Shown one piece after another: positions 41,490-61,280 of a DNA stretch of 64,000 bases. Under the pieces are notes generated by a model. It was not told the origin of the DNA and searched no databases. It saw only the letters and a program-made list of their open reading frames with translations. The stretch is from NCBI GenBank assembly GCA_963725665.1, contig CAVRZA010000011.1, positions 160,001-224,000 of the forward strand, read 5' to 3'. How positions within the stretch are numbered: position 1 is the first letter of the stretch; each line of letters starts with the position of its first letter. The position numbers and the translations under genes were made by a program. Source of the stretch: an uncultured Actinomycetes bacterium (GTDB taxonomy: Bacteria; Actinomycetota; Thermoleophilia; UBA2241).

Positions 41490-42395
41490 ATGAGGAAGAG
41501 GTTCGAGTACCTGAGACCCGCCACGGTCGAGGAGGCCTGCGACTTCAAGTCGCGCTATGGAGCGGGCGCTCGCTTCCTCGCCGGTGGGACCGACCTGATC
41601 CACGACTGGCGTCGCGAGCAGGTCTCGTTCGACTACTGCATCGACCTGACCTTCATCCCCGGTCTCGACTCCTTCGAGTGGAACGGGGAGCACCTGCGCG
41701 TCGGGTCCCTGGCCAAGCTGTCAACGATCGCCGCGGCGGCGGCGGAACCCGGCCTGCCGGGCTTCTTGGCCTCCGGCGCGCGCCGCATGGGCACGCCCCA
41801 GATCCGCAATCTGGCGACTGTGGGCGGCAACATCTGCCACGCCTCGCCCTGCGCCGACATGGCCGTCATGTTGACGGCACTCGACGGCGAGGCACAGCTG
41901 CAGTCGAGCCGCGGCAGCAGGTCGCTGCCGTTGCGCGAGTTCTTCAAGGGTGTCAACGAGACCGGCGTGGCGGACGATGAGCTGCTCACGGAGGTCCTCG
42001 TGCCGATCCCAGCGGCCCGTACCGAGGCCTCCTACCAGCGCGCCACGCGCACAAGCGTCGACCTCGCCCAGGCCAGCGCGGCGGTCTGCCTGAGCACGGA
42101 CGACGGCACGACCGTGAGCCGGGCGCGCATCGCGATAGGCGCCTGCGCGCCGGTCCCTGTGCGCTCCGATGCCGCCGAGGAGATCCTCGTCGGCCTCGAC
42201 CTGAACGACCGCGACCGCGAGACCATCGAGCTGGCGGCCTCGCGGGCGGAGTGGGAGACGAGCCCGATCTGCGATATCCGCGGCTCCGACGAGTACCGGC
42301 GCGAGGTGAGCAGGGTCCTCGTGCGACGCGCCGTCGAAGACTGTCTGGCGAGAGCTGGTCGGCGTCCCGGCGTCGGTCTAGGAGGGAGTGCACCC
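41490..42395 (+). CDS. Molybdenum hydroxylase FAD-binding (medium) subunit; reads in frame into the small subunit
   Basis: AGGTDL, QIRNLATVGGN, ASPCAD and DIRGSDEYR motifs. Confidence 0.88.
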
Positions 42396-42863
42396 ATGGC
42401 GACGCTACACGTGAACGGATCGGTGCACGAGCTCGACATCGAGCCGCACGAGACCCTCTCCGAGGTCTTGCGCGAGAAACTCGGCCTGCGCGGGGTGAGG
42501 GTCTCGTGCGGCGAAGGCGAGTGCGGCTCGTGCACCGTGCTCCTCGACGGCCGCCCCGTCACCTCATGCCTGATGCTGGCGCTGCAGGCCGAGGGCAAGG
42601 AGGTCACGACTATCGAGGGCCTAGGCACCGAAGACGATCTGCACCCGATACAGCAGGCGTTCATCGACGAGCAAGGCTTTCAGTGTGGGTTCTGCACGCC
42701 CGGGGTGATCCTGAGCACGAAAGCCTTCCTCGAGACCAATCCCGACCCCACCCCTGCCGAAGCGGCTGCGGCCCTCACCGGTCACATCTGCCGCTGTGGG
42801 GCCTACCCGCACATCGTGCGCTCTGTGATCCACGCGGCGCATCAGAACGGAGGCCCCTCATGA
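42396..42863 (+). CDS. Molybdenum hydroxylase 2x[2Fe-2S] (small) subunit
   Basis: GGAGGGAG RBS; CGEGECGSCTV, QCGFCTPG and ICRCG motifs. Confidence 0.9.
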   Translation: MATLHVNGSVHELDIEPHETLSEVLREKLGLRGVRVSCGEGECGSCTVLLDGRPVTSCLMLALQAEGKEVTTIEGLGTEDDLHPIQQAFIDEQGFQCGFCTPGVILSTKAFLETNPDPTPAEAAAALTGHICRCGAYPHIVRSVIHAAHQNGGPS

Positions 42864-45307
42864 CTCCCAAGCGCGACTTCACCGTCGTCGGCAAGGCGAT
42901 CCCCGTCAAGGATGCCAGGGAGAAGGTCTGCGGCACGCTCAAGTATCCCGTCGACTTCGCCCTGCCCGGCATGGCCTACGGCAAGATCGTGCGCAGCACG
43001 CAGCCACACGCCCGCATCCTGGGGATCGACGCTGCGCAAGCAGAGGCCCTGCCGGGCTACCTCGGCATCGTCACCCACGAGGACGCCCCCGACCTCGACT
43101 GGCACGGCGTCTGGCTCAACTACATCGGCCACATCTTCGACGGCGTCGCCCGCTTCGCCGGCGACGAGATCGCCGCCGTCGCCGCGACGTCGATGGAGGT
43201 GGCCGAACAGGCAGCCGCGCTGGTCGAGGTCGAGTACGAGCCACTGCCGGCCGTCTTCGACCCCGACGAGGCGCTGCTGCCCGACGCGCCTCAGGTGCAG
43301 GCCGCCGGCAACGCGCGCGAGCCCAACGTGTACGAGTGGGGCGATCTCGAAGCGGGCAAGAGAGCGGCCGACTTCACCGTCGCCGCCGACGTCTCCTTCG
43401 GCAGCCAGCAGATGGCGCCCATCGGGCGCAACGCCGCCATAGCCGAGTGGAACGGCGGCAAGGTGACTCTCTACGCCGGCTCGCAGTCGCCCTCGGAGCT
43501 GCGCGACGGGCTCGCGCAGGCGTTCGGCATCCCGCAGAGCAAGACGCGCGTCGTCGCGCTGCCCCTGGGCGCCTCGTTCGGCGAGTTCTGGAGCAACAAC
43601 TTCATGATGGTCGCGCCTCTACTGGCAAAGAAGATCCGCCGGCCGGTGAAGATCGAGCTCACCAACGAGGAGTGCATGGCCTTCGTCAAGCGGCGCCACA
43701 AGGAGCACTGCCGAGCCAGCATGGGCTGCATGAGGGATGGCGAGATCACCTTCATCGACGTCTACCACATCATGGACAACGGCGCCTACGGCTTCAAAGT
43801 CGAGGTCGGCTACTTCAACATCGACAACTGGGGCGCTCGCGCAAGGAGCGGCCGCTACGAGTGCCAGGGGGTCTCGACGAACCTCGTGACCGGCGGCTGC
43901 ATGCGCGGCGTGGGCGACGTCACCATGGGCTCGATCGTCGAGCGGCTGGCCGACCAGCTCGCCGAGAAGATCGGTATGGACCCTGTCGAGTTCCGCATCC
44001 GCAACCAGATCAAGCCGGGCGATCCGCTGCGCCAGACATGGGCGAAGACCCTCATGCGTCACGACGAGGAGGGCTACCGCAAGCTGGTGCGGGAGTCGGC
44101 GCGTGAGGCGCCGCCCGAGCTGCTCGAAAGTTGGCCCAAGCTCTTCCACCTCTCCTCGGGATGCAGTGAGGGCATTCTGCGCAAGGGCGCCGAAGCCTTC
44201 GGCTGGAAGGACAAGTTCGTCGGCTGGGCCAAGCCCTACTACGCAGAGGGACCCAAGCGGCGCGCCGTCGGTGTCGGCACCGGGATCCACCTCTGCGGCG
44301 AAGAGATGGAGGGCAACACCGACGCCGTGGTGCGCCTCATGAAGGACGGCAGCGCCAAGGTCTGCTGCTCCATCGGACGCCACGGCACCTGCGCCGACAC
44401 TACGCAGGCGCAGATCGCCGCCGAGACCCTGGGCATCCCCATCGACAAGGTCGAGGTCGAGACCGGGGACACCGACGCCTGCCCGTGGAGTCGAGGCTCC
44501 CTGGCCAGCACGACACTCTTCCGCACGGGCTTCAAGGTCTGGGCGGCCTGCCTCGACGCCAAACGTCAGCTCCTCGAGCTGGCGGCGCGCGAGTTCTTCG
44601 ACAACGAGCCGTCGCGTCTGGAGATCAGAGAAGGCTACATCCAGTACGTCGACCGCAGCGGCCCCCACGCCGGACGCTGCACCACTTGCAGCACCGGCGT
44701 GAGCAGCATCTCGATCCCCGACGTGATGATGCACTTCCGCTCCGACGCCCTGGGCCCGACCGACAGCATCACGGGGCGGCCGGCCTTCCCCATGCCCCCG
44801 TCGACGGCCTTCTCGCGCCACTTTGCGGCGCAGTTCGCCGAAGTCGAGGTCGACGTCGAGACGGGCGAGGTCAAGCTGCTGGACTACCTCGTGGCGCAGG
44901 ACAGCGGCACCATCATCAATCCCAAGGTCTTCGAGGGGCAGATCATCGGCGGGGCGACGCTCGGCGCGGGCTTCGCGCTGTCCGAGATGCTGGCCTTCGA
45001 CGACGAGGGGCGCATTCTGAACGCCAACCTGACCGACTACAAGGTCCCGCGCATGACCGACTTCCCGGTGTGGACGAAGACGCTCTGGGAAGAAGACTAC
45101 GACCCGGTGGGGCCGTTCGGGGCGCGTTCGGCCGGCGAGGCGCCGATCGCCGCCGCACCCGCAGCGATCGCGCAGGCCGTTCACAACGCCACCGGCGTCT
45201 GGGTGAACCTCCCCATGACGCCCGAGCGCGTCCTCGACGCCCTGCGGGAGCACAAGAAGGCCGAGGAGAGGCGGCCGCGGACTCCGGTCCCGGCGCCGGC
45301 CCGCTGA
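42860..45307 (+). CDS. Xanthine dehydrogenase-family molybdopterin-binding (large) subunit
   Basis: RSTQPHA, CMRGVG, MDPVEFR, GSLAS, INP..EGQIIGG, DYK and AGE motifs. Confidence 0.93.
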   Translation: MTPKRDFTVVGKAIPVKDAREKVCGTLKYPVDFALPGMAYGKIVRSTQPHARILGIDAAQAEALPGYLGIVTHEDAPDLDWHGVWLNYIGHIFDGVARFAGDEIAAVAATSMEVAEQAAALVEVEYEPLPAVFDPDEALLPDAPQVQAAGNAREPNVYEWGDLEAGKRAADFTVAADVSFGSQQMAPIGRNAAIAEWNGGKVTLYAGSQSPSELRDGLAQAFGIPQSKTRVVALPLGASFGEFWSNNFMMVAPLLAKKIRRPVKIELTNEECMAFVKRRHKEHCRASMGCMRDGEITFIDVYHIMDNGAYGFKVEVGYFNIDNWGARARSGRYECQGVSTNLVTGGCMRGVGDVTMGSIVERLADQLAEKIGMDPVEFRIRNQIKPGDPLRQTWAKTLMRHDEEGYRKLVRESAREAPPELLESWPKLFHLSSGCSEGILRKGAEAFGWKDKFVGWAKPYYAEGPKRRAVGVGTGIHLCGEEMEGNTDAVVRLMKDGSAKVCCSIGRHGTCADTTQAQIAAETLGIPIDKVEVETGDTDACPWSRGSLASTTLFRTGFKVWAACLDAKRQLLELAAREFFDNEPSRLEIREGYIQYVDRSGPHAGRCTTCSTGVSSISIPDVMMHFRSDALGPTDSITGRPAFPMPPSTAFSRHFAAQFAEVEVDVETGEVKLLDYLVAQDSGTIINPKVFEGQIIGGATLGAGFALSEMLAFDDEGRILNANLTDYKVPRMTDFPVWTKTLWEEDYDPVGPFGARSAGEAPIAAAPAAIAQAVHNATGVWVNLPMTPERVLDALREHKKAEERRPRTPVPAPAR

Positions 45308-45475: not shown

Positions 45476-47140
45476 GTGTTCGGAGGCGTGGTGCCGCAGG
45501 GCGACTACCTGACCGTCGGCGAGCTCGTGACCGAGACCGGCCTCGAGCTCCACCTCCTCACGGGCGAGGTAGGGCTGGAGCGGGCCGTGCAGGGCATCCA
45601 CCTAGCCGACTACGATGATCCCACTCCGTGGATGGCGACCGGCACCGTGCTCATCACCACGGGCGCTCCGTTCGCCGACTCGCCCGAGAAGGCGGTGCGC
45701 TTCCTCGACAGGATCGCCGAGAAAGACACCGTGGCGCTGGGTGTCGGCACGGGGCATAACCTCGATCACGTTTGCCTCGAGATGGTCGAACACGCCCGCC
45801 GCTTGCGCATCGCGGTCTTCGAGATCCCGCCCAGTGTGCCGTTCCGCACAATCTTCGCCTACGTCTACAACGCCCTTGCCTCGAGCGACATGCACCGCCT
45901 CCGTCGTACCTTGGCCGTGCAGGGACAGCTCCTCGACCTCCTCATTGACGAGAAGGGCATCGGCGAGGTCCTCTCCCGTCTTGCGCGCATCCTCGAGATG
46001 CGGGTGGTGCTCTTCGACAGCAGCGGCGCGGTAGTGGCGCGGGCCGGCAGCGAACCCCCAGACGAGGCCACGATCGAGCGTATCTGGAACACTTACACCT
46101 CGACCCAGGACCTGGGACCGCTGGGCATCCTCGAGGTCGAGCACGGCCGCTTCCACATCCGGCGCGTGCTCGTGCATGGCGTCGTTGAGCGCGTGCTGGC
46201 CGCCGTGGTGGAGCAGCCGGCGGCCTCGTCGGAGTTCGCCGAGCTCGCCCTCTCGTACGCGCAGCGTCTCATCGCGCTCGACCTGCAGCGCGAACGCGAG
46301 CAGCACACCCTGAGGCGACGCATGCGGGCCATCCTCCTCGACGACCTGCTCTCGCGGGACGAGGTCGACCGCGACCTGTCGCAGCGGTTGCTAGACCACG
46401 GGATCGACCTCGACCACGCCTGGCGCGTCGTCGTCTGCTGGGTCGACCACTTCGCCCTCGCACCCGGAGAGGAGCAGCCCGGCGAGCGCGAGTCCTATCG
46501 CCTCAAGACCGAGTTGCAGGCGGCCCTCGAGGCGTCTCTCACCGCGCACCGCATCCCCTGCATCAGCATGGTGAAGGGCGAGGCCGTCGTCGCACTCTGC
46601 GTCTTCGACGGTCTCGAGGCGCTCGAGGTGCACGACAGGCTGGTCGAGCTGCGGCAGGCGATCAGCGATCGCCTGCCGCAGCTCGTCACCAGCCTCGGCG
46701 CCTCGTCCTCGGCACGCGGCCAGCTCGGGCCGGCGGCGGCCTTCCGTCAGGCGCGTGAGGCAGTGCGCGCCGCCGGGCAGGGGATCGCCGTCCTCCAGCG
46801 GGTCGTGCTCTTCGAGATGGCCGGAGGGCGGTTCCGCCTGCTCAAGGGCCAGAGCGACGAGTCACTGCGCTCCCTGTGCGAACGCCTCGTCGTCCCCCTC
46901 GTGGAGCACGACCGCCAGCACCACACCTCGCTGATGCCGACACTGCGCACGTTCTTCGACAACCGGCTCTCGGTGCACCAGACGGCCGACGCCCTCTTCA
47001 TCCACCGCAACACGCTGGGCAAGCGGCTGCACCGCATCGAGGAGCTACTCGACGTCGACCTGGCACAGATCGACGACGTCTTCGAGCTCTACCTCGCCCT
47101 GCGCGCCGCCGAGTTGCTCGAGAGCGTCAACACGCTCTGA
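45476..47140 (+). CDS. PucR family transcriptional regulator
   Basis: DPTPW...LITTG PucR domain; C-terminal TADALFIHRNTL.KRL..IE helix-turn-helix. Confidence 0.93.
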   Translation: MFGGVVPQGDYLTVGELVTETGLELHLLTGEVGLERAVQGIHLADYDDPTPWMATGTVLITTGAPFADSPEKAVRFLDRIAEKDTVALGVGTGHNLDHVCLEMVEHARRLRIAVFEIPPSVPFRTIFAYVYNALASSDMHRLRRTLAVQGQLLDLLIDEKGIGEVLSRLARILEMRVVLFDSSGAVVARAGSEPPDEATIERIWNTYTSTQDLGPLGILEVEHGRFHIRRVLVHGVVERVLAAVVEQPAASSEFAELALSYAQRLIALDLQREREQHTLRRRMRAILLDDLLSRDEVDRDLSQRLLDHGIDLDHAWRVVVCWVDHFALAPGEEQPGERESYRLKTELQAALEASLTAHRIPCISMVKGEAVVALCVFDGLEALEVHDRLVELRQAISDRLPQLVTSLGASSSARGQLGPAAAFRQAREAVRAAGQGIAVLQRVVLFEMAGGRFRLLKGQSDESLRSLCERLVVPLVEHDRQHHTSLMPTLRTFFDNRLSVHQTADALFIHRNTLGKRLHRIEELLDVDLAQIDDVFELYLALRAAELLESVNTL

Positions 47141-47141
47141 T

Positions 47142-47187
47142 TGTGCATCTGCCCACCACCTGGCGCGAAGAGTGTGCTCCTGCTGTG
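47142..47187 (+). promoter_or_regulatory. Putative PucR-family operator
   Basis: TGTGCATCTGCCCAC at 47142 and TGTGC at 47173 (the same 31-bp spacing as at 40610). Confidence 0.55.
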
Positions 47188-47349
47188 CGGTTCGCCACGG
47201 CCCTCGGCCCTAGATTGCGGACGACGACACGAGTGGCGGTGCGCGACGCCACGGCCGCGACGCAGCGCGACGACTGAGGCGCAGGCGAGCGGGCCGGTGG
47301 CCGGCACGGACGGACCGTGCGCGCGGGCCGCTGGGGAGGTAGGTGGTCG

Positions 47350-48054
47350 ATGAGCGCAAGCGGATCGGACGGCCGCGCGGCCGTGGTCACCGGTGCCACG
47401 GGGGTGATCGGCGGTGCGGTCGTCGCTCGCCTGCAGGCCGAGGGCTTCACCGTTGCCGGTCTGGACCTGGGACACGGCGGCGGCGACCTGTCGCTCGTGG
47501 TCGACGTGACCGACCGCGAGGCGATGAGAGCCGCCGCCGAACGAGTCACACGGGAGCTGGGCACCATCGAGGTGCTCGTCACCGCACACGGCTACCACGC
47601 CGCCGCCGCCTTCGGTGAGATGAGCCGCGACGACTGGCGGCGGCTGCTCGACACGCACCTGGGAGGCACGGTCAACGCCTGCGCCGCGGTCGTCCCCGGC
47701 ATGGTCGCCGCGGGACTGGGCACGGTCGTGACGACGTCCTCGTGGATCGCCCTCGCCGGCGTGCCGGGCGAGGCCTACTACGCGGCCGCGACCGGCGCCA
47801 TCCTCGCCTTCACCAAGAGCTTCTCGCTCGAGGTGGCGCCCAAGGGGGTACGCGTGAACTGCATCGCCATCGGGCCGGTCGAGACAGGCACGGGAGCGAA
47901 GAGCTTCAGCCCCGGCCAGCCGGCGCCGGCGGAGCTGCCGCTGCGGCGGTACGTCACGCCTGAGGAGATCGCCGACACGGTCTCCTTCCTCATCAGGGAC
48001 GGCGACTTCATGGTCGGCCAGGTCTTCACGCCGGCCGCCGGGGCGGTGGTCTGA
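47350..48054 (+). CDS. SDR oxidoreductase lacking the catalytic Lys (YxxxT)
   Basis: TGATGVIG, YYAAATG and VRVNCIAIGP motifs. Confidence 0.85.
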   Translation: MSASGSDGRAAVVTGATGVIGGAVVARLQAEGFTVAGLDLGHGGGDLSLVVDVTDREAMRAAAERVTRELGTIEVLVTAHGYHAAAAFGEMSRDDWRRLLDTHLGGTVNACAAVVPGMVAAGLGTVVTTSSWIALAGVPGEAYYAAATGAILAFTKSFSLEVAPKGVRVNCIAIGPVETGTGAKSFSPGQPAPAELPLRRYVTPEEIADTVSFLIRDGDFMVGQVFTPAAGAVV

Positions 48055-48055
48055 C

Positions 48056-48817
48056 ATGGGCGTGCTCGAAGACACCGTCTGCCTGGTCACCGGCGCCGCG
48101 CAGGGCATCGGCAAGGGCATCGTGATCCGCATGGCCCAGGAGGGCGCCCGTGTCGCGGTGAACGCGCGCCTCGACGACGCCCGGCTCACGGCCGTTGTCG
48201 ACGAGATGGGCGGTTACCCGGCGCCCTTCGACATCGCCGACCCCGACGCCAACAGGGCCATGGTCGCGGACGTGGAGGCCAGTCTGGGTCCCATCGAGGT
48301 GCTCGTCTGCAACGCGGCGCGCATGACCATGATGCCCTTCCTGGAGCAGCCGCCGGAGCAGTGGTGGGAGCAGATCCGCGTCAACCTCACGGGGCACATG
48401 GACCTCATCACCAAGGTCCTCCCCGGCATGCGCAAGCTGGGCCGTGGCAGGATCGTCCTCATCAGCTCGCTCTGGGGACCGATCGGCTGGGAGAACGCCA
48501 CCGGCTACGCCTCGACCAAGTCGGCGCTGATCGCGCTCGGGCGCTCGCTCGGAAAGGAGCTCGCGCCCGAGCACATCTACGTGACCGTCGTGGCACCGGG
48601 GATCATCGACACCCCCCAGCTCCAGGTCGACGCCGACGACGCCGGCGTCACGCTCCAGGAGATGCACGCCATCTACGCCAAGAACATCCCCGCGGGTCGC
48701 ATCGGCACGCCCGACGACGTGGCGCGCGCGGTCGTCTTTCTCTCGACCGAGACCGCCGGCGCCTACGTGGGGCAGACCCTCCATCCGAACGGTGGTGAGA
48801 TCAGATGCTCGATGTGA
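48056..48817 (+). CDS. SDR oxidoreductase
   Basis: TGAAQGIG, CNA and YASTK motifs. Confidence 0.9.
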   Translation: MGVLEDTVCLVTGAAQGIGKGIVIRMAQEGARVAVNARLDDARLTAVVDEMGGYPAPFDIADPDANRAMVADVEASLGPIEVLVCNAARMTMMPFLEQPPEQWWEQIRVNLTGHMDLITKVLPGMRKLGRGRIVLISSLWGPIGWENATGYASTKSALIALGRSLGKELAPEHIYVTVVAPGIIDTPQLQVDADDAGVTLQEMHAIYAKNIPAGRIGTPDDVARAVVFLSTETAGAYVGQTLHPNGGEIRCSM

Positions 48818-49857
48818 ACGCCACGTGGCGCTACGCGCCGGTGCAGGCCTGGAAGGGCGACGCGGCGGCGCTCGCGATCCTCAGCTTCGACGTCGACGCC
48901 GAGACGCCGCTGCTCGCCGCGGGGGAGAAGTACACGCAGCACCTCTCGACGATGTCGCACCAGGCCTACGGGCCGACAATCGGCGTGCCGCGCATCATCA
49001 GGATGCTGGCGCGGCACGGCAAGCCAGCGACGTTCTTCGTCCCCGGCTGGACGGCCGAGCACTACCCGCGCTGCATGGAGGCGATCCTCGAGTCGGGGCA
49101 CGAGATCGCCCTGCACGGCTACACGCATCGCCCACCCTGCTACAACACCGCCGACGAGCAGCGCGCCGAGATCGAGAAGGGGCTCGCCGCCTTCGAGAAG
49201 TTCGGCGTCAAGCCCTTCGGCTACCGCGCCCCGATGTGGCAGACGTCGAAGCACACGCTGGAGATGCTGGGTGAGTACGGCATGCGCTACGACTCCTCCC
49301 TGATGGACGACGACCGGCCCTACCTGCTCGACACACCCTCTGGGCGGATCGCCGAGATGTGCCCCCAGTGGTACCTCGACGACTGGGAGCAGTACGTCTA
49401 TGTGCCCGATCCCGACATGGGGGCGACCATCAACCGACCCAGCGTCGTCGCCCAATTATGGATCGAGGAGCTCGAAGGCGAGCGCGAGACGGGCTCGCTG
49501 CTCATGCTCACCTGCCACCCCTTCGCCAGCGGCCGGCCGGGACGCATCAAGGCCATCGAGAAGCTGATCGACTTCGCCGACGAGTGCGGGGACGTGGCCT
49601 TCACGCGCGCCGACGAGCTGGCGCGCAAGCTGCTGGCGGTACCCGACGCCGCAGCTCAGCGACGAGCGGCCGGAGTGAACCGCCGACTTGCGGCGACGAG
49701 CGGTGTGCAGGAGCTGAGCGTCCTGCAGGAAGTGTGGGCACCTGCACCTCGCCACGATGGAGTCCCGAGCCATATGCTCACGGCGAATAGGTACAAACGG
49801 TGGCCGAAGCGGGTATCTTGTCGAGCGTTGTCCCGCCTCTCGGAGGAGGTGCCGTAA
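48805..49857 (+). CDS. Polysaccharide deacetylase / PuuE-like CE4 hydrolase (true end probably near 49680)
   Basis: SFDVDAE, YG, TFFVPG, HEIALHGYTH, GYRAP, YDSS, DDW and HP motifs. Confidence 0.85.
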   Translation: MLDVNATWRYAPVQAWKGDAAALAILSFDVDAETPLLAAGEKYTQHLSTMSHQAYGPTIGVPRIIRMLARHGKPATFFVPGWTAEHYPRCMEAILESGHEIALHGYTHRPPCYNTADEQRAEIEKGLAAFEKFGVKPFGYRAPMWQTSKHTLEMLGEYGMRYDSSLMDDDRPYLLDTPSGRIAEMCPQWYLDDWEQYVYVPDPDMGATINRPSVVAQLWIEELEGERETGSLLMLTCHPFASGRPGRIKAIEKLIDFADECGDVAFTRADELARKLLAVPDAAAQRRAAGVNRRLAATSGVQELSVLQEVWAPAPRHDGVPSHMLTANRYKRWPKRVSCRALSRLSEEVP

Positions 49858-49949
49858 GCGATGCGCTTGACATCGTCTCGCAAGGCTACCGACCACCCGG
49901 CGCCGCCGGCGCCGGATCTTACGTCGCAATCCAGACAAGGGGGACTGCA

Positions 49950-51482
49950 TTGAGTGACATCACGGCCCCGCCGCGGGGCAACTCAGGCGAGGCGGAGGCT
50001 CAGAGACTAGGCTACAAGCAGGAGCTGAGGCGCGAGTTCGGCTTCTTCCACGCGTTCGCCATCAGTTTCGCCGACACGTCGCTGATCGTCGCCTTCTACG
50101 GCTCCTTCGCGCTGGCACTGGGGGCGGCAGGCCCCACCTTCTTCTGGGGCATGATCGCCGTCCTGCATCTTCCAGATCCTGGTCGTCCTCGTCCTCGGCG
50201 AGGTGTCCAGCCGCTACCCGCTCGAGGGCGGCATCTACCAGTGGACACTCGAACAGACGGGGGCCACCTCCGGGTGGTTCTCGGCCTGGGCGTACTGGTG
50301 GACGATGGTCTTCACCATGACGAGCTGCGCCTATGCGTCGGCGAGCTTCCTGCTGCCCGGCCTCGGCTTCGACACCGCGGACGAAGGGCTGGTTCATCGC
50401 CGTCGCGGCCGTCATCGTGCTCTTCGGCCTCGCCATCAACAGCATCGCACAGTGTGATCCTCAAGGTATTCGTGACCATCCTGCTCATCGCGGAGGTGAC
50501 GACCACCATCGGCCTCTCCTTGGTGTTCTTCTTCGGCTACCGGGAACACGGCTTCAGCACCTTGTTTCACTCCTTCAACACCGCCGGCAACAGTACGTTC
50601 AACTGGGTCTGGATCGGCTTCTTCGGCGCCATCGCCTTCATGGGCTGGACGTTCCTAGGCTTCGAGGCGGCAGGCTCCATCGCCGAGGAGGTACACGAGC
50701 CGGCCAAGAACGTGCCGCGGGCGATGATCGCGGTGTGCGTCGGCATCGGCATCATCACGCTGTTCGTCACGGTCGCCTTCATCCTCGCCATCCCCAACAT
50801 CAGCGACGCCATGACGGGCAACATCGCCGACCCCGTGATACAGACGCATCACCTTCCACCTCGGCACCGGCTATCGAGAAGCCGCTGCTCGATCATGATC
50901 TCGCTCGGCTTCATGGGCAGCATGGTGGCCTTGCACATGGCGGGCTCGCGCACTCTGTACTCATTCGGGCGCGACAAGATGATCCCCGGCTCGAGCTATG
51001 CCACCATCCTGAGCAAGAACCGCAAGCTCCCGTGGGTGGCCCTCAGCTTCACCTCGGCCATCTCGATCGTCATCCTGCTCGTCAACATCGGCGCGGAGCG
51101 GGTGTTCACGACGCTGTTGCAGATCTCGGCCGCCGGCTTCTTCATCTCGTACGGCTTCGTCGTCATCTCGCAGTTGGTGACGCATATCAACAAGCGTCAC
51201 TCGCACGGGCCGTTCAGTCTGGGCAGGTGGAGCTACCCCATCACGTGGATCGCCTCGGTCTGGATCGTCTTCGAGATCATCAACCTGATGTGGCCGCGCA
51301 GCGCCGTCGCTCCCCTGGTACCAGAACTGGGGCGTGATCACGATCACGGCTGTCCTGACCGTCGCCGGCGCTATCGTGTTCCTCGTCGTGCCGAAGGAAG
51401 GGGGACACGTCGGGCGAGCCGCCCAAGGAGGAGATCGCCGAAGGCGCGGCCTTCGCCGATCATCCGGCCGATTGACGCCTGA
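49950..51482 (+). CDS. APC family amino acid permease (several frameshifts)
   Basis: LGYKQELRR, SRYPLEGGIYQW, GFEAAGSIAEE, SRTLYSFGRD and GPFSLGRW motifs across shifted frames. Confidence 0.85.
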   Translation: MSDITAPPRGNSGEAEAQRLGYKQELRREFGFFHAFAISFADTSLIVAFYGSFALALGAAGPTFFWGMIAVLHLPDPGRPRPRRGVQPLPARGRHLPVDTRTDGGHLRVVLGLGVLVDDGLHHDELRLCVGELPAARPRLRHRGRRAGSSPSRPSSCSSASPSTASHSVILKVFVTILLIAEVTTTIGLSLVFFFGYREHGFSTLFHSFNTAGNSTFNWVWIGFFGAIAFMGWTFLGFEAAGSIAEEVHEPAKNVPRAMIAVCVGIGIITLFVTVAFILAIPNISDAMTGNIADPVIQTHHLPPRHRLSRSRCSIMISLGFMGSMVALHMAGSRTLYSFGRDKMIPGSSYATILSKNRKLPWVALSFTSAISIVILLVNIGAERVFTTLLQISAAGFFISYGFVVISQLVTHINKRHSHGPFSLGRWSYPITWIASVWIVFEIINLMWPRSAVAPLVPELGRDHDHGCPDRRRRYRVPRRAEGRGTRRASRPRRRSPKARPSPIIRPIDA

Positions 51483-51515
51483 CACGCACACGACCTAGAC
51501 AAGCGACGAGACGCA

Positions 51516-51637
51516 GGGCGTGCGGGCGAGCCGGGAGGCTCGCCCGCACGCCCCCTCGTGCCACAACGAGCGGCACGACGTGAACAGGAGTCGCCGGCGC
51601 CGGGTGGCCTTCAAGGCCACCCGGCGCCGGCGACTCC
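51516..51637. repeat. Three consecutive intergenic inverted repeats (17, 7 and 25 bp)
   Basis: 17-bp stem at 51516-51553; 7-bp stem at 51556-51578; perfect 25-bp arms around one central base at 51587-51637. Confidence 0.85.
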
Positions 51638-51657
51638 CTCCAGCGAAAGGAGCGCGA

Positions 51658-52413
51658 ATGGCAGAAGGCAGACTGGCAGGCCGCGTGGCTCTCATCACCG
51701 GCGGCAGCCGCGGCATCGGTGCCGCGATCGCGAAGGCATTCGCTCGCGAGGGGGCCAGGGTCGCATTCACCTACCACAAGCGCGCAGACGCGGCGCGCGA
51801 GGTCGTCGCGGTGATCGAGGCCGCCGGAGACGAGGCGCTCGCCATCCAGGCCGACGCCTCGCAGGTCGACGACGCCAGGCGCGCCGTCGACGAGACGGTG
51901 CATCGCTTCGGCCACATCAACATCCTCGTCAACAACGCCGGCGCCATCGGCGCCGAGTACACGGTGCAGGACATGCCCGTCGAGGAGTGGGATCGGCTTA
52001 TCGGCACGGACCTGCGCGGTGTCTTCCTGGCGACGAAGTTCGCCTTGCCGCACATGAAGACCGACCCGGTCGGCAAGATCATCAACATCAGCTCAGAGCT
52101 GTCGATCAAGGGTCGCCCGACGCAGGCCCACTACTGCGCGGCGAAGGGCGGCATCAACGGCTTCACGCGCGCCCTCCAGTGGGAGGTGGGGCCGGGCATC
52201 TGCGTGAACAGCCTGGCGCCCGGCCCGATAGCGACCGACCTCATCCTCGCCGACATGACGCCGGAGTGGATCGAGAAGGAGAAGGACATCCTCGCCGGCC
52301 GGCTCGGTGAGGTCGAGGAAATCGCGGAGCCGGCGGTCATGCTGGCCTCCGACGAAGGCAACTTCTTCATGGGTCAGTTCATCAGTCCCAACGGCGGCGC
52401 CGTCTTCACGTGA
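51658..52413 (+). CDS. SDR oxidoreductase
   Basis: TGGSRGIG, NNAG and YCAAK motifs. Confidence 0.92.
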   Translation: MAEGRLAGRVALITGGSRGIGAAIAKAFAREGARVAFTYHKRADAAREVVAVIEAAGDEALAIQADASQVDDARRAVDETVHRFGHINILVNNAGAIGAEYTVQDMPVEEWDRLIGTDLRGVFLATKFALPHMKTDPVGKIINISSELSIKGRPTQAHYCAAKGGINGFTRALQWEVGPGICVNSLAPGPIATDLILADMTPEWIEKEKDILAGRLGEVEEIAEPAVMLASDEGNFFMGQFISPNGGAVFT

Positions 52414-52513
52414 GCCGCGAGGGACCGCGACCCAGAAAAGGCAGTGAACACCAGCACGCAGGGTGCCCTGTGACCGATGTGCACGCGCCTCTGGCGCCCG
52501 AAAGGGGTTGACG

Positions 52514-53571
52514 ATGATCACTGAAGGGCTCAAGGGACGCGACTTCATCACCCTGCGCGACTTCACCAGGGCCGAGATCGAGACCATGCTCGACGTGGGC
52601 CTCAAGCTCAAGGCGGACAGCGCGATGCGCGTCCGCCACCAGGACGTGCTGCCCGGACGCACGCTGCTGCATGATGTTCTTCAACCCCTCTCTGCGCACA
52701 CGCAACAGCTTCGAGGCCGGCATCTTCCAGCTCGGCGGGCACGCGCACTTCCTCGAGCCCTCCGCCACGCGCCTGCCCACCCTCGAGGGTGAGGACGTGC
52801 CCTATCAGTCGGAGCGCATCGCCGACGTCGCACGCGTGCTCTCGCGCATGGGCGACGCCATCGCCATCCGCATCCTGGGCGGCGCCGTCGACTGGCAGTA
52901 CGAGAAGTCGCTGCGCATCATCGAGGAGTTCGCCACGTACTCGAAGGTGCCGGTCATCAACATGGAGGACAACAAGTACCACCCCAACCAGGGCATGGCC
53001 GACGCGATGACGCTCTGGGAGCACCTCGGGCGCGACCTGCGCGGGCGCAAGCTGGGCGTCTCCTGGACCTACTCGCCCTCCACCAAGAAGCCCATCGCCC
53101 CGCATCACGACTTCATGTACGCGGCCAGCTTCTTCGGGCCCGACATCGTCTTCGCCCACCCGCCCGAGCTGCGCATCGACCCCGACGTCGGAGCAGGCGA
53201 TCAAGACCAACCTCGAGGCCAACGGCGGCTCCTACGAGGTCGTCGACGATATGGACGCCGCCTGCGAGGACGCCGACGTGGTCTACGCCAAGAACTACGT
53301 GGCGCTTGACCTGCTGCCTCCCGTGACGGCCGAGCCGCAGCACGACGAGATGGCACGCCTTTTCGAGAAGTACCGCGGTTGGATCGCCGACGAGCGGCGC
53401 ATGAGGCTCGCCAAGAAGACCGCCTTCTACATGCACTGCCTGCCCTGCGAACGTGGCTACGAGGTCGCCGATGCGGTGCTCGACGACCCGCAGTGGGGTA
53501 CGCCCTGCTACGACGAGGCCGAGAACCGGCTGCACGCGCAGAAGGGCGTCATGGCCTGCATCATCCCCTGA
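52514..53571 (+). CDS. Carbamoyltransferase, YgeW/AOTCase-like, copy 1 (frameshifts near 52665 and 53190)
   Basis: FFNPSLRTR, HPNQ, WTYSPSTKKP, HCLPCERGYEV and EAENRLH motifs. Confidence 0.88.
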
Positions 53572-53681
53572 AGGAGCCGGCCGGCTCGCGAGCGCGCCGC
53601 GCTCGATGTCCGCTGCAGGGCGGCGAGAGCCGACGCCATTGAAGACCCCGCAAGAGGAGACCACCGAGGAGGGTGTCAAGC

Positions 53682-54729
53682 ATGCAGACGACCTCACTGA
53701 AGGGCCGTGACTTCATCGCCATCTCCGACTTCACCAGAGAGGAGATCGAGACGATCCTCGACACGGCCTTCGAGCTCAAGCTCGAGCGGGCCCGCGGTGT
53801 GCGCCACCATCTGCTCGAGGACGCCACGCTCTACATGATGTTCTACAACAAGAGCCTGCGCACTCGGAACAGCTTCGAGACCGGCATCCACCAGCTCGGC
53901 GGCCACGCCATCTACCTCGACTCCAACGCCGTCTACACACCGGCCGTCGAGGGCAAGGAGCAGGCCTTCGTGACCGAGCGTCTCGACGACGTCGCCAAGG
54001 TGCTCTCGCGCTACGGCGAGGCGATCGCCATCCGCATCTTCGGCGACCCCGTAGGCTGGCTGCACGGCGAGGCCAATGCCTACATGCGCGCCTTCGCCGA
54101 GGCCGCCGACATCCCCGTCATCAACATGGAAGACGACATGTACCACCCCTGCCAGGGCATCGCCGACCTGATGACGATGAAGGAGAAGCTGGGCAGCCTC
54201 GAGAGACGCAAGGTCGTCGTGAGCTGGGCCTACTCGCCCTCGCGCAAGAAGCCCGTCAGCGTGCCGCACTCGATGATGCAGGTGAGCTCGCTCTTCGGGG
54301 CCGACGTGGTCTTCGCCCGCCCGCACGGTTTCGAGCTCGATCCGGCGCAGATCGCGAAGGCCAAGGACAACGTCTCGCGCTACGGCGGCTCGTTCGAGGA
54401 GACCGACGACATGCGCGCCGCCTTCGAGGGCGCCGACGTGGTCTATCCCAAGTGCTGGCCGGCCATCCAGTTCATGGCCGGGCCCGGCAAGGAGGCCGAC
54501 TGGGAGGCCCAGGATGAGCTCTTCGAGGCCAACCGAGGCTGGATCGCCGACGAGGAGATCATGAAGCTCACGAAGCGCGACTGTCTCTACATGCACTGCC
54601 TGCCCTGCGACCGCGGCTATGAGGTGACCGACGCCGGTCATCGACGGTCCTCACTCCGTGGTCTACGACCAGGCCGAGAACCGCATGCACGGCCAGAAGG
54701 CCGTCATGGCGCTCACCATGAGGGGATGA
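53682..54729 (+). CDS. Carbamoyltransferase, YgeW/AOTCase-like, copy 2 (frameshift near 54635)
   Basis: [38 protein letters not shown] and QAENRMH motifs. Confidence 0.88.
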
Positions 54730-54738
54730 GGCTCCACC

Positions 54739-55621
54739 ATGGCTGACGAGACGAGGACGCGCGGCGAAGAGCTGCGCCAGTACAACGCCTGCGGACCGCG
54801 TGCGCAAGCTCCTGCTCTGCCCGCCCGACCTACTACCGCGAGCTCGAGATCTCGGAGATCGCCCACCGCACGGTCCAGGGCGGCGAGGTCGTCGACCTGC
54901 GTGTCGCCGAACCCGATGCACGAGGGTCTGGCGCGGGCCCTCGAGGAGGCCGGCATCGAGCTCGCCTGGGAGGAGCCGCACCCCGACCACGCCTGGCAGG
55001 TCTACACGCGCGACTTCGGCGTCAACACGCCGGCCGGGGTGCTGATCGGCAAGTACCGCTACGAGCCGCGCTGGGGCGACGAGGAGTTCGCCATCGCGGC
55101 CCTGACGAAGCTCGGCGTCGACATCGCCGGTCGCGTGTCTCGGGGCGCCGTCGAGGGCGGCGACTGCTGGCTGCTCGACGAGTCGACGCTCGTCATCGGC
55201 GCCGGCAACCGCTCCAACCTCGAGGGCATCGAGAACGCCGCCGAGATCCTGCAAGCCGCACGGCATCGACGTGGTGCCAGTGGAGTTCGACCCCACGTGG
55301 AACCACCTCGACATGATCTTCCGCGTGCTCGCAGAGAAGCTCGCTATGTACGGCGAGGCCGGTCTGCCGGCGAGCTACGTGCGCTTCCTCAAGGACTGCG
55401 GCTGGCGGCTCATCCCCCTGCCCGAGGAGCAGGTCATGAAGACGGGCTGCAACGTACTCGCGCTCGGTGAGGGACGCATCCTCTCCTTCGCCGAGAACGA
55501 GGCCGTCAACGAGCTGCTCGTGGCCGAGGGCTTCGCGCTCGTGGCGCCGCCGCTGCGCGAGTTCACCAAGATGGGCGGCGGGCCGCACTGCCTGACCTTC
55601 GAGGTGCAGCGCGACCGGTAG
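54739..55621 (+). CDS. Amidinotransferase-fold (pentein) deiminase/DDAH-like protein (frameshifts)
   Basis: YTRD, R..E, VEGGD, HLD, CN and GGGPHCLT motifs. Confidence 0.85.
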
Positions 55622-55718
55622 ACGAGAGCTTGGCAGATCCGCGGGGGCGCGCGGCGCAACCCGAAGGGACACGCCGCCCGCCCCTTGAGCCTTTCGAGAC
55701 GAACGGGAGTCAGCAACT

Positions 55719-56156
55719 ATGAGCACGACGGCGCTCATCGTGATGGCGGTCGCATTCTACGTCGTGTTCGCCGTCTCGAACTCGCAGGCGGGAGGCCATA
55801 TCGACGCCAGCCTGAGCTCCGTCATCTTCAACGGCCTCGGAGCGCTGCTTCCTCTCGCCTTCTACCTGGCCACCCGCGTCGGGCGCCCCGAACGGCTCGT
55901 CCCGACGCGACCCTCGGGCCTTGCCTACTCTGTCGTGGCCGGCGTCGCCGTCGCGGCCTTCTCCGTCGTCCTGATCACGATCTACGGGCGCGGCGGCTCC
56001 CTCTCCTACGTCTTCCCCACCGTCTACGGGGCAGCGGTAGCGCTCACCGCGGTGGTCGGCTGGCTGGTGCTCCGCGAGGCGTTCTCGCCGCTGCACGCGC
56101 TCGGAGTCATGGCCATCGTCGGCGGCATCGTCCTCCTCGCCTTGCCGGCCAAGTAG
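55719..56156 (+). CDS. Small DMT/EamA-like membrane transporter
   Basis: About five transmembrane helices; LVLREAFS..LG motif. Confidence 0.75.
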   Translation: MSTTALIVMAVAFYVVFAVSNSQAGGHIDASLSSVIFNGLGALLPLAFYLATRVGRPERLVPTRPSGLAYSVVAGVAVAAFSVVLITIYGRGGSLSYVFPTVYGAAVALTAVVGWLVLREAFSPLHALGVMAIVGGIVLLALPAK

Positions 56157-57986: not shown

Positions 57987-59168
57987 CTAGGCCCGCGCCC
58001 CGAAGAGCTCCCCGTGTTTGGCCGCGATGCCCTCGGCCAAACGATCAAGCGCCGCGTAGTCCTCCGTGCGCGGCAAGCCCTTGCACATCACCGGCTCGAA
58101 GAACTCGGCCTTCACGTGGGGCATCAGCCCGGCGAGCTGGTCGACCGTCTTGCCTCCCCAGCCGTACGAGCCGACGATGGCAGCGTACTTCATCTTCGGC
58201 TTCAACGCGTTGGTCAGAAACGCCGCCGTAGCGGCCGCAGGATGCGGGCCGCCGAGCACCGTCGGTGTGCCGATGACCACGGTGGCCGCATCGACCAGAG
58301 CGGTGGCGAGCTTGCCCGTGTCGACCGACGCGAGATCGAAGCGCTCGACGCCGACGCCACGTGCAGCGAGCCCGTCGACGAGGCGGTCGACCATGTGCCG
58401 CGTGCTGTCGTGCATCGACACGTAGACGATCACGGCGAGGTTCTTGGGCTCGTCCGACACCCAGTCCCGGTAGGCGTCGATGATGAACGCCGGCTTGTCG
58501 TAGACGGGCCCATGCGAGGGAGCGATGAACTTGATCTTGTAGCCGTCGAGCTTGTCGAGGTTCTTCTGGATGATGTTGCGGAAGGGCATCATGATCTCGG
58601 CGAAGTAACGCTTCGCCGGTTCGTAGACGCGGCGCTCCTCGGCGAAGAGGTCGGTGGTGGCGAGGTGGGAGCCGAAGAAGTCGCAACTGAGAAGGAGCTT
58701 CTCCTGCTGCACGTAGGTCGACATGGTCTCCGGCCAATGCACCCATGGGGTGTACAGGAACTTCAGCGTCAGATCGCCGAGCGAAAGGCTCTCGCCGTCG
58801 GCCACCGGCGAGAAGCGCTCGTCGGGCAGGTGAAGCAGATCGATGAGCATCCCCTTGCAGCGCTCCGAGCAGACGATCTTCGCCTTTGGATAGCGCTCGA
58901 GCACCGCGGCCAGTGAGCCGGAGTGGTCCTGCTCGGCGTGGTTGGCCACGATGTAGTCGACCCTGTCGATGCCCTCGAGCTGCTCGAGCAGCACCCCGGT
59001 GAAAGCCGGGTCGACCGTCTCGACGAGCGCCGTCTTGTCGCTGCCGAAGACTAAGTAGGCGTTGTAGCTCGTGCCGTCGGGGATGGGGATGAGCGCGTCA
59101 AAGAGCCGCCGATCCCAATCGACTGCGCCGACGAGCGAGACCCTGTCGGTGATCTTGCGAGCCTTCAT
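57987..59168 (-). CDS. fprA: Flavodiiron protein (A-type flavoprotein)
   Basis: GTSYNAY, NHAEQDHSG, HWPET, SCDFFG, PSHG and GSYGW motifs. Confidence 0.93.
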   Translation of the reverse strand: MKARKITDRVSLVGAVDWDRRLFDALIPIPDGTSYNAYLVFGSDKTALVETVDPAFTGVLLEQLEGIDRVDYIVANHAEQDHSGSLAAVLERYPKAKIVCSERCKGMLIDLLHLPDERFSPVADGESLSLGDLTLKFLYTPWVHWPETMSTYVQQEKLLLSCDFFGSHLATTDLFAEERRVYEPAKRYFAEIMMPFRNIIQKNLDKLDGYKIKFIAPSHGPVYDKPAFIIDAYRDWVSDEPKNLAVIVYVSMHDSTRHMVDRLVDGLAARGVGVERFDLASVDTGKLATALVDAATVVIGTPTVLGGPHPAAATAAFLTNALKPKMKYAAIVGSYGWGGKTVDQLAGLMPHVKAEFFEPVMCKGLPRTEDYAALDRLAEGIAAKHGELFGARA

Positions 59169-60062: not shown

Positions 60063-61280
60063 CTACAGCTCGTTCACGAGCTGCTCGAGGAAGAGGCCGA
60101 CGTCGGTGACGATGCCGATGGTCTGGAAGCTGCCGCGGTCGGCCAGTTTCGTCACGACCGCGGGGTTGATGTCGACGCAGACGGTGAGCACCGAGGCGGG
60201 CAGCAGGTTGCCCGTGGCGATAGAGTGCAGCATGCTCGAGAGCATGAGGCAGGCGCCGGCGTCCTGGCAGTAGGGGCGCATCGCCTGCTGGGCGCCGACG
60301 ACGTCGCTGATCACTTCCGGGAGCGGACCGTCGTCGCGGATCGACCCGGCGAGCACGAAGGGCGTGCCGGTCGTCACCAACGTGTGCATCAAACCGGTCT
60401 TGAGCACGCCCTGCTCGACCGCCTGCCGGATGCCGCCGCAGCGCCGCACGGTGTTGATGGCGCGCAGGTGATGCTCGTGGCCGCCGGGCGCCGGCGTCCC
60501 CTCGGTGAGCGAGACGCCGAGCGAGGTGCCGAAGAGCGCGGACTCGATGTCGTGGGTCGCCACCGCGTTGCCGCCAAAGAGCACGTCGACGTAGCCCAGC
60601 TTCACGAGGCGCGCGAGGTGGCCGTGCGCGCCGGTGTGCACCACGGCAGGCCCCACGACGGCGATGATCTTGCGTTCCTGTTCCTTGCTGCGTCTCAGCA
60701 GCCGCGCCACCTCGTGGATGATCTGCGCCTTGGGCTTCTCAGAGGACACCGCTGAGGCCATGAACTCGAACGGCTGGCTCTCGCGCGGGCGTTCGAGGGG
60801 CACGACGCGGAGGCCGCGGCGACCGACGACCAGTCGGTCGCCGCGGCGCACGTCGCTCATCGGTATCGTCTCGGCCGTGCGGCCCGCCGCATCGACCTTG
60901 ACGCCGCAGTCCATTTCCGGCCTCTCCACACGCACCCACTGCCCGCCGAGGCGCACGTACGTCTCGAGGTTCGTGGTCGAGTAGAACTCGTCGGGGAACA
61001 CTCCGTCGGTCGGCGCCTCGGCGAGCTCGGCGTCGTGCGGTTCCACAGAGACGGCGCCGTGCTCTTGGATCGCCTCGAGGATCATCTCGAGGTGCGCTTG
61101 GTCGCGCCCGAAAACACGCAGCACGGCGGTCGAGATGTCCGTCTTGGTGCGCCCGACCTCGAACGACAGGATCTCGTACTCCCCCTCGAGATCCATGATG
61201 TCGTCCATGATCCGCGGGACGAGCAGTGAGTCGATCAGGTGGCCCTGGATGCGGACGTCCTCGTAGAGCTTGCGCGGCAT
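60063..61280 (-). CDS. TIGR00300 family (LOR/SDH-conserved domain) protein, ornithine cyclodeaminase-like
   Basis: GHLIDS, FYSTTN, EMDC, GPAVVHTG, HDIE, AGSIRDDGP, LHSIATGN and KLADRGS motifs. Confidence 0.9.
   Translation of the reverse strand: MPRKLYEDVRIQGHLIDSLLVPRIMDDIMDLEGEYEILSFEVGRTKTDISTAVLRVFGRDQAHLEMILEAIQEHGAVSVEPHDAELAEAPTDGVFPDEFYSTTNLETYVRLGGQWVRVERPEMDCGVKVDAAGRTAETIPMSDVRRGDRLVVGRRGLRVVPLERPRESQPFEFMASAVSSEKPKAQIIHEVARLLRRSKEQERKIIAVVGPAVVHTGAHGHLARLVKLGYVDVLFGGNAVATHDIESALFGTSLGVSLTEGTPAPGGHEHHLRAINTVRRCGGIRQAVEQGVLKTGLMHTLVTTGTPFVLAGSIRDDGPLPEVISDVVGAQQAMRPYCQDAGACLMLSSMLHSIATGNLLPASVLTVCVDINPAVVTKLADRGSFQTIGIVTDVGLFLEQLVNEL

Follow-up and report, generated by a model that had tools for sequence, protein, structure and literature searches.

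ATP is gained from arginine and agmatine by deiminase pathways of a common logic: a pentein produces a ureido compound, which a carbamoyltransferase (CT) phosphorolyses, and carbamate kinase (CK) then makes the ATP. A knotted catabolic CT has also been described for the YgeW/YqeA step of the reductive 2,8-dioxopurine/uric acid pathway, where it takes one ureido group from a bis-ureido purine product and ATP is gained via CK (PMC12507026; bioRxiv 10.1101/2025.04.24.650524). For allantoin catabolism, the described setting of UGTCase combines a pseudo-ATCase with carbamate kinase and allantoinase (PMC4016543); what is missing there is the last step, a transferase that acts on oxalurate. In this study, we analysed a 64,000-nucleotide stretch (the window) of contig CAVRZA010000011.1 from an uncultured Actinomycetes bacterium, in which three co-directional genes on the plus strand exactly span positions 52514-55621. 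The genes encode two carbamoyltransferases, CT1 and CT2 (Pfam OTCace_N and OTCace in both), and a pentein of the ADI/DDAH type (Pfam ADI, DDAH_eukar). The source genome is designated G000, other genomes carry G numbers, and the relatives' loci compared carry L numbers. With slightly better than even confidence, we read the locus as the 3' half of a conserved, uncharacterised catabolic operon in which two AOTCase-like CT subfamilies and a new pentein would serve an ATP-yielding pathway, and in which the single-base insertions that interrupt the genes are most probably assembly errors.

The hallmarks of transcarbamylases are SxRT, HPxQ and HxLP together with a conserved beta4 Arg (PMC4581275), and CT1 and CT2 both retain SxRT, the beta4 Arg, HPxQ, HCLP and the C-terminal Arg, as expected of members of this superfamily. 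An earlier description made from the sequence alone (the original prediction) had pointed to SLRT, HPxQ and HCLP as carbamoyl-phosphate motifs of both enzymes and to the lack of an SMG ornithine loop; the three motifs are indeed present in the translations, and DxxxSMG occurs in neither protein. The acceptor-loop sequence of CT1 includes WTYSPSTKKPIAPHH, and the CT2 loop differs. When the orthologues of relative G012 were scored, NF003384 (AOTCase) was the best NCBIfam model for both transferases, with 286.5 bits for CT2 and 257.7 bits for CT1; both missed its cut-off of 288, as did the CT1 orthologue in L098 (268.5 bits). The YgeW models NF005538 and TIGR03316 gave 168.3 and 151.3 bits for CT2, and 107.8 and 99.3 bits for CT1, without reaching their cut-offs of 453 and 500. 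Every curated NCBIfam cut-off lies above CT1 and CT2.

Comparison with solved structures placed the transferases on the knotted side of the family. Across the extended 120s loop and the proline-rich loop, CT2 differs from X. campestris AOTCase by an indel of only 1-2 residues, whereas alignment with the unknotted P. furiosus OTCase requires insertions of 10 and 7 residues. An AlphaFold (AF2) model of G012 CT2 (pLDDT 84.1, pTM 0.86; residues 56-83 poor) matched AOTCase 3kzm best in Foldseek (TMq 0.84), with unknotted OTCases at 0.71-0.78. The equivalents of AOTCase E144, K252, R112, H148, Q151 and R322 are retained in the CTs, including the acceptor-anchoring Glu/Lys pair (positions counted by hand on the alignment with AOTCase; residue roles from the review PMC4581275). 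The original prediction had taken a WAYSPS.KP.SVP loop as a trait of knotted YgeW/AOTCase-type enzymes, and E. coli YgeW does have WAYSPSYGKPLSVPQ at that loop, which aligns with WAYSPS..KP.SVP of the CTs. Its label 'YgeW-like', however, did not survive, in view of the well higher NF003384 scores and of AOTCase as top Foldseek match. YgeW itself is distinguished by a length of ~396 aa, additional helices at both termini and a long 240s loop; CT1 and CT2 have 348-351 aa, lack these features, and show none of YgeW's insertions in a joint alignment. CT1 and CT2 are AOTCase-like transferases with a predicted knotted fold. Identity of either one with UGTCase was considered and rejected, since UGTCase falls within the ATCase branch, which is unknotted (PMC4016543; PMC4581275).

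The original prediction further claimed a pentein with a D/H/C catalytic set, and TRDFG, WNHLD and GGGPHC are all present. Across 16 diverse members of the family, D90, E137, D140, H187, D189, H281 and C282 are invariant; the database matches comprise 176 proteins, all of metagenome or metagenome-assembled genome (MAG) origin. The pentein falls far below the curated cut-offs for ADI, DDAH and dihydrolase families (TIGR01078, 47.8 bits against 489; NF045660, 61.6 against 340; NF052232, 45.4 against 450). Its nearest solved sequences are ArgZ/AgrE N-domains (phmmer at most 40 bits, identity 18-23%), and its AF2 model (pLDDT 88.1) superimposed on the ArgZ N-domain with TMq 0.80-0.81 and an rmsd of 2.6 A. 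All Foldseek matches of this model were penteins, the nitroimidazole hydrolase NnhA among them by E-value, and the ESM Atlas returned only generic 'arginine deiminase/DDAH family' clusters. By sequence, the pentein represents a small and new DDAH/ArgZ-like family, and its conserved Cys, His and Asp form a putative catalytic set. By hand count on an alignment, the family has Asp where the dihydrolase ArgZ has Asn71. Deiminases likewise carry Asp at this position. The residue is a weak hint that the enzyme would stop at the ureido stage.

Distant members of the pentein family (42-48% identity) have variable contexts, with M20 hydrolases, a PALP enzyme and ProC at L025, and a TRAP transporter and 2-hydroxyacid dehydrogenase at L028. 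At L035 (9995-18009), the pentein, in two frames, lies beside hydantoinase-like, CT, CK, PALP and M20 genes, a layout that resembles the E. coli ygeW-ygeX-ygeY-hyuA-yqeA cluster. At L030 (8138-12517, a Thermacetogeniaceae MAG), genes for a formiminotransferase, the pentein, a knotted CT and carbamate kinase stand in a row. This array is a possible lead to orphan steps of clostridial purine fermentation (ureido-imidazole carboxylate, 4-aminoimidazole), the genes for which were not known according to one genome paper (PMC3519856).

The genes at the locus are conserved as an operon among relatives. Intact orthologues in the same order occur in G012, where a carbamate kinase gene lies ~3.5 kb from the operon, and the operon recurs in L015, L016, L029, L017, L018, L046 and L066. 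A search of species genomes for relatives of the pentein, mapped by tblastn, gave 31 loci, 11 of which have a pentein at least 57% identical to that of G012 (L020, L022 and L033, among these 11, are short contigs). The NodB-fold hydrolase encoded upstream was the commonest neighbour, in 8 of the 11 close loci; a CT2-type gene was found in five (L015, L016, L019, L029, L034) and a CT1-type gene in two (L015, L016). On these counts, the hydrolase and the pentein form the constant core, and the transferases lie between the two in some lineages. PucR homologues precede the cluster in L017, L018 and L029, and DMT/SMR-like homologues occur in it, at varying positions, in L015-L018, L029, L046, L047 and L066. 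At L021 the locus is without transferase; a PucR-CT2-CK trio (L014) lies ~11 kb away on the same contig. Carbamate kinase genes also accompany the transferases directly: pentein, CT and CK occur together in L030 and L035, and CK is beside CT2 in L019 (as pentein-CT2-CK) and in the PucR-CT2-carbamate kinase trios of L013, L014 and L135.

The non-arginine deiminase pathway put forward in the original prediction is supported in outline by the missing ornithine loop, the scores below cut-off, the canonical OTC-type and PyrB genes elsewhere in the genome and the CK neighbours in relatives; the YgeW-like naming has to be given up. Under this reading, the cell would import a ureide or guanidine compound rich in nitrogen, plausibly a product of purines or other N-heterocycles, which the NodB hydrolase would open and the short-chain dehydrogenases/reductases (SDRs) would oxidise. 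The pentein would hydrolyse an amidino C-N bond so that a ureido group remains, and CT2 and CT1, as separate homotrimers, would release carbamoyl phosphate by phosphorolysis, each acting on a different ureido intermediate, the substrate of CT1 probably being oxalurate-like. A carbamate kinase encoded elsewhere (C4:415692-416618), the only one above cut-off in G000, would then convert carbamoyl phosphate to ATP, CO2 and NH3. Sequential removal of two ureido groups is possible by analogy, the precedent being the action of YgeW on 2,3-diureidopropionate (PMC12507026; bioRxiv 10.1101/2025.04.24.650524). A more specific version, which we rate as rather unlikely, would have an undescribed pathway gain energy by substrate-level phosphorylation from a cyclic guanidine or ureide related to allantoin, such as an imino or guanidino analogue or some other product of N-heterocycle breakdown: the PuuE-like hydrolase would open the ring, the pentein would make the second ureido group from the guanidino group, and the CTs would harvest both carbamoyl groups as carbamoyl phosphate, for a yield of two ATP per molecule.

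Each of the three genes is broken in the window, by seven single-base insertions in all, so that no open frame spans any of them. CT1 has extra bases near 52669 and 53190 and is read in three frames; CT2 is read in two frames (extra base at 54636) and the pentein in five pieces (extra bases at 54799, 54828, 54905 and 55252). The permease gene farther upstream carries extra bases at 50165, 50379, 50453, 50847, 50872, 50890, 51300 and 51411, and the 3' end of the hydrolase gene is probably lengthened by one near 49649. Apart from the one near 49649, these sites were placed by alignment to the intact orthologous DNA of G012 (83% identical), and the total comes to ~16 insertions within 49649-55252 (5.6 kb), all of them +1 and none in a homopolymer. 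In L046, a short-read metagenome contig with 90% nucleotide identity, the extra bases of the window are absent at all five sites covered. Contigs from other public runs are likewise one base shorter at 53190, 54636, 54800, 54823 and 55252/55257; this comparison rests on relatives' contigs, and no indexed run contained more than 0.14 of the sampled words. When each piece was translated in its own frame, CT1, CT2 and the pentein had only terminal stops and no internal ones, and differences from G012 at codon positions 1/2/3 numbered 23/15/84 for CT1, 39/18/106 for CT2 and 40/26/86 for the pentein, compared with 15/17/78 for the intact neighbouring gene SDR3. Because relatives and the short-read contig are without the insertions, and because the codon-position statistics indicate purifying selection, the insertions are very probably errors of the assembly consensus and not signs of decay. 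Our guess, from the lower G+C of the operon and from several metagenome variants that are 88-99% similar, is that mixed reads lie behind the clustering. A local cluster of such errors would make automatic annotation miss the entire operon.

It is unlikely, on the same evidence, that the insertions are genuine mutations in an array of pseudogenes, with the pathway dead in this organism and alive in its relatives. Such decay would fit the occurrence of ~16 frame-breaking insertions within 5.6 kb while most window genes appear whole and rpoB (1243 codons) and dnaE (1140 codons) of G000 are each one open frame. It would also fit a G+C content that dips from ~70% for the window to 0.65-0.66 across the operon, and the accessory nature of the operon (CT2 orthologues in 5 of 41 related genomes). 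However, the lesions are all +1 insertions, with no deletions, nonsense codons or larger lesions among them, and substitutions relative to G012 are as constrained as in the intact SDR3. Moreover, the G012 and G010 assemblies show insertion-only damage likewise, at other sites within the same operon, and near-identical short-read contigs show gaps at the permease sites.

Ordinary arginine metabolism was weighed as another explanation, in which CT1 and/or CT2 would be an N-acetyl- or N-succinyl-ornithine carbamoyltransferase and the pentein an arginine deiminase, a dihydrolase or DDAH. Public labels of relatives (N-acetylornithine or ornithine carbamoyltransferase, dimethylargininase) agree with it, and G012 CT2 is only 1.5 bits under the AOTCase cut-off. 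The AOTCase signature, however, is not retained: W77/E92/N185/K302 are replaced by Thr/Thr/Pro/Glu in CT2 and by Leu/Ser/Pro/Glu in CT1 (positions hand-counted on pairwise and joint alignments, with an uncertain alignment of the 80s loop). SOTCase has A/S/P/V/Q, P and V/I/E at three discriminating positions, in addition to the succinyl-binding His176, Arg178 and Arg278 (PMC4581275). CT1 (S, P, E) fits this pattern and CT2 (T, P, E) nearly so, which at these positions brings both nearer to the succinylornithine enzyme than to AOTCase and would speak for a role in arginine metabolism; phmmer matches to SOTCase structures reach only ~108 bits. The neighbouring genes encode a PucR regulator, a permease, SDRs and the NodB hydrolase instead of arginine biosynthesis enzymes, the pentein scores 45-62 bits against cut-offs of 340-489, and the CT and pentein genes are found in few related genomes. 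The transcarbamylase family of G000 numbers seven genes, namely PyrB and four OTC-type genes (together at C3:87500, C8:44683, C11:502841, C4:416970 and C8:164631), and CT1 and CT2 in the window; a 2015 review gives a range of zero to six per bacterium or archaeon. CT1 and CT2 are not needed for arginine or pyrimidine synthesis, because the four OTC-type genes (above the TIGR00658 cut-off; one is beside the carbamate kinase gene) and PyrB (above its own) are present elsewhere in G000. An NPN (nickel-pincer-nucleotide)-dependent ornithine cyclodeaminase gene lies 4.4 kb downstream and would suit arginine metabolism, but no homologue of it was found near the clusters at the 31 pentein loci, and its membership of the pathway is not supported. 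On balance, a role of the three genes in ordinary arginine metabolism appears improbable.

The relationship between CT1 and CT2 bears on whether they act separately, as the pathway proposed here would have it. Described as 'diverged tandem paralogs' in the original prediction, the two are indeed adjacent and 50% identical, but they represent two separately distributed clades. In a quick tree of 52 rows, CT1 was monophyletic with 100% SH-aLRT on a long stem and grouped with the CT2 clade linked to the pentein, which left YgeW and a further clade, 'CT3', outside both. All of the 120 CT1 clusters listed are 74-93% identical to CT1, and some are titled Anaerolineales or Chloroflexi. Both clades are rare among relatives: of 301 genomes sampled from the phylum, 3 have matches at E<=1e-90. 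Conservation of the pair, which the original prediction had named as a check, was seen in the window, G012, G010, L046 and L066, where CT1 and CT2 are adjacent with a 110-nt gap; elsewhere they are usually apart. Among 80 CT1 metagenome loci, only L046 and L066 have CT2 beside CT1, and CT2 is absent from 61 of the 62 loci with at least 1100 nt downstream. Conversely, CT2 occurs without CT1 in L029, L034, L019, L013, L014 and L135. We conclude that the CT1-CT2 pair did not arise by a recent tandem duplication; its members come from two distinct clades that usually occur apart. PucR homologues precede CT2 or CT1 in L013, L014, L135, L061 and L069. A CT2-like gene, a CT3 gene and carbamate kinase occur in G327 (L132), G067 (L136) and G331 (L133, L137), and twin knotted transferases therefore recur as an arrangement.

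These distributions make it very unlikely that CT1 and CT2 combine into an obligate heterotrimeric carbamoyltransferase for a single substrate, a heterotrimer having been one option of the original prediction. The adjacency of the genes in five loci would suit such an enzyme, and so would the position of transcarbamylase active sites at subunit interfaces (PMC4581275); however, each gene is found without the other, CT2 standing alone in the PucR-CT2-CK trios, CT1 forms a clade of its own, and both catalytic sets are complete, so that neither resembles a dead partner. An anabolic role, in which the transferases would carbamoylate amines for a natural product or compatible solute as some OTC-branch relatives do in viomycin, zwittermicin and padanamide biosynthesis (PMC4581275), is highly improbable, given that the annotated stretch of the window holds no NRPS, PKS or other biosynthetic genes and that association with carbamate kinase, permease and PucR across many lineages points to catabolism.

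Outside the pentein operon, CT1 keeps company with genes of ureide breakdown. At the 43 CT1 loci of at least 8 kb, the neighbours were a DAO-type flavoenzyme (26 loci), a bicupin (23), an IlvC-like reductase (21), an allantoinase-like amidohydrolase (19), carbamate kinase (19), ETF/FixCX (17-18) and an M20 hydrolase (14). In L098, the scores identify AllB (522.9 bits against a cut-off of 357.85) and (S)-ureidoglycine aminohydrolase (261 against 200) along with carbamate kinase, and an ATCase-like gene falls narrowly below the ATCase cut-off (228 against 237). From this gene context, CT1 is a candidate for a transcarbamylase-family oxamate transcarbamylase that would carry out the oxalurate to oxamate step of anaerobic allantoin breakdown. 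Oxamate transcarbamylase activity has been known since the 1960s. AllFGH of E. coli is the one gene set known for it and has no relationship to this family (PMC11326118). As an observation in its own right, the conserved anaerobe cluster around CT1 in L098 (5-13857), L112, L123 and others comprises pseudo-ATCase-like, CK-like, carbamate kinase, AllB and M20 genes and continues with ureidoglycine aminohydrolase, IlvC-like, thioredoxin-like, CT1, FixCX/ETF and DAO flavoenzyme genes.

As listed in Table 1, the three genes belong to a one-strand array that runs from 45476 to 56156 in the order PucR-SDR-SDR-NodB hydrolase-APC permease-SDR-CT1-CT2-pentein-DMT-like protein. The hydrolase scores 66.9 bits against the PuuE model TIGR03212 over nearly its full length, with a far higher cut-off of 424.6; its L017 orthologue (290 aa) matches PDB 3rxz with 243.8 bits and PuuE 3cl6 with 61 bits. 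A promoter and terminator scan of 45-57 kb gave counts not above those of shuffled sequence, and operon boundaries were not obtained from it.

Table 1. Genes of the array in the window
Feature	Position	Strand	Remarks
PucR-family transcriptional regulator, first gene of the array	45476..47140	+	Pfam PucR, GGDEF_2, HTH_30
SDR oxidoreductase 1	47317..48054	+	Pfam adh_short; kept in L015-L018, L029, L047
SDR oxidoreductase 2	48056..48817	+	Pfam adh_short; adjoins SDR1 in those same loci
NodB-fold (polysaccharide deacetylase family) hydrolase, PuuE-allantoinase-like	48805..49857	+	Pfam Polysacc_deac_1
APC-superfamily permease, broken by ~8 single-base insertions	49932..51472	+	Pfam AA_permease_2; tblastn pieces in rotating frames
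SDR oxidoreductase 3, intact	51658..52413	+	Pfam adh_short; one frame, 90% identical to G012 orthologue
CT1, AOTCase-like carbamoyltransferase (predicted knotted), 'ureide-cluster' clade, ~351 aa	52514..53571	+	two extra bases
CT2, AOTCase-like carbamoyltransferase (predicted knotted), 'pentein-linked' clade, ~348 aa	53682..54729	+	one extra base
Small pentein, DDAH/ArgZ-like guanidine-modifying type, ~291 aa	54739..55621	+	Pfam ADI/DDAH; four extra bases
Small four-helix DMT/SMR-like membrane protein, last gene of the array	55719..56156	+	weak EamA and SMR matches

Several genes around the array were also recorded. Directly upstream of the PucR gene lies a gene for a xanthine-dehydrogenase-family molybdenum enzyme (1018 codons, 42251-45307, plus strand); a 51% identical homologue adjoins the CT1 orthologue in L107, and another XDH-type gene adjoins CT1 in L053. 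Downstream, on the minus strand, a flavodiiron protein (ODP metallo-beta-lactamase and flavodoxin, 57987-59168) resembles anaerobic nitric-oxide/oxygen reductases and is flanked by EamA transporters and a MarR regulator. The ornithine cyclodeaminase mentioned above (60063-61280, minus strand; TIGR00300 540.5 bits, cut-off 410.8) is the stand-alone counterpart of the ArgZ C-terminal domain.

Some observations weigh against the catabolic pathway proposed here or against parts of it. The damage is concentrated in this one operon, an unusual pattern for random error. In L017 and L018, the operon and the pentein are retained without any transferase, so the pentein does not strictly need a CT; in CT1 loci, moreover, the pentein (of a 43-45% clade) occurs where the M20 hydrolase is missing (L081, L085-L087). 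Because of these CT-less clusters and M20-less CT1 loci, the pentein possibly stands beside the CTs rather than before them, and it might be a dihydrolase or ureidohydrolase acting in parallel. Carbamate kinase is absent from the window, and no gene of G000 scores above cut-off as a canonical AllB, PuuE or ureidoglycine aminohydrolase, which makes the link between CT1 and allantoin indirect in this organism. The tree was a quick search whose rows included 9 CT1 and 13 CT2 clusters, hand-picked across identities from the 120 listed for each. In a limited literature collection, no paper reported a DDAH-like pentein alongside knotted transferases, and none described assays of the two CT clades or the pentein family.

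If the more specific, allantoin-related version of the pathway is correct, CT1 would supply the oxamate (oxalurate) carbamoyltransferase of the transcarbamylase family that anaerobic ureide catabolism still lacks, and the pentein family would be a new deiminase with a substrate not derived from arginine. The steady position of CT1 in allantoin-type clusters makes it a concrete candidate for that transferase activity. Two large, well-conserved knotted CT clades and a small pentein family are publicly mislabelled as (acetyl)ornithine carbamoyltransferase and dimethylargininase; because of their gene contexts, a catabolic role on other ureido or guanidino compounds is suggested for all three. As judged from run and record titles, these families occur in uncultured soil, peat and sediment lineages, in which ATP from carbamoyl phosphate may matter for the use of nitrogen-rich substrates under anaerobic conditions.

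Compared with the arginine and agmatine deiminase pathways, the locus would follow the same logic, and pentein-CT-CK triplets occur in L019, L030 and L035; here, however, the transferases are AOTCase-like with a predicted knot and not of the OTC/PTC type, the ~290-aa pentein is distant in sequence from ADI and from the agmatine deiminase family, and the operon encodes two transferases along with three SDRs and a NodB hydrolase, with CK outside it in this genome. The YgeW/YqeA system is resembled in the purine-type regulator context of the window and in L035, where the pentein is beside a hydantoinase-CT-CK-PALP-M20 set. Unlike YgeW, CT1 and CT2 score 108-168 bits (cut-off 453), have ~350 aa without the extra helices and fall outside YgeW in the quick tree, and no SsnA, YgfK, YgeX or YgeY was found in the window. 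AOTCase (X. campestris; NF003384) is the best HMM and structural match and has in common with the CTs the extended 120s loop, the proline-rich loop and the acceptor-anchoring Glu/Lys; the CTs differ from it in their scores below cut-off, in the replacement of W77/E92/N185/K302 and in a gene context that is catabolic and not that of arginine biosynthesis.

With UGTCase (pseudo-ATCase) and oxamate transcarbamylase of allantoin catabolism, the likeness lies in the clustering of CT1 orthologues with a pseudo-ATCase-like gene, CK, AllB and ureidoglycine aminohydrolase, whereas UGTCase is of the unknotted ATCase branch, AllFGH is unrelated (PMC11326118), and G000 is without the canonical allantoin genes. 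The pentein has its fold and its Cys/His/acid catalytic set in common with the ArgZ/AgrE N-domain, DDAH and NnhA, but is 18-23% identical, has Asp for ArgZ Asn71, and lies among different neighbours. In outline, the locus would thus encode an ATP-yielding pathway whose deiminase/CT/CK logic is known, built from three uncharacterised and mis-annotated families.

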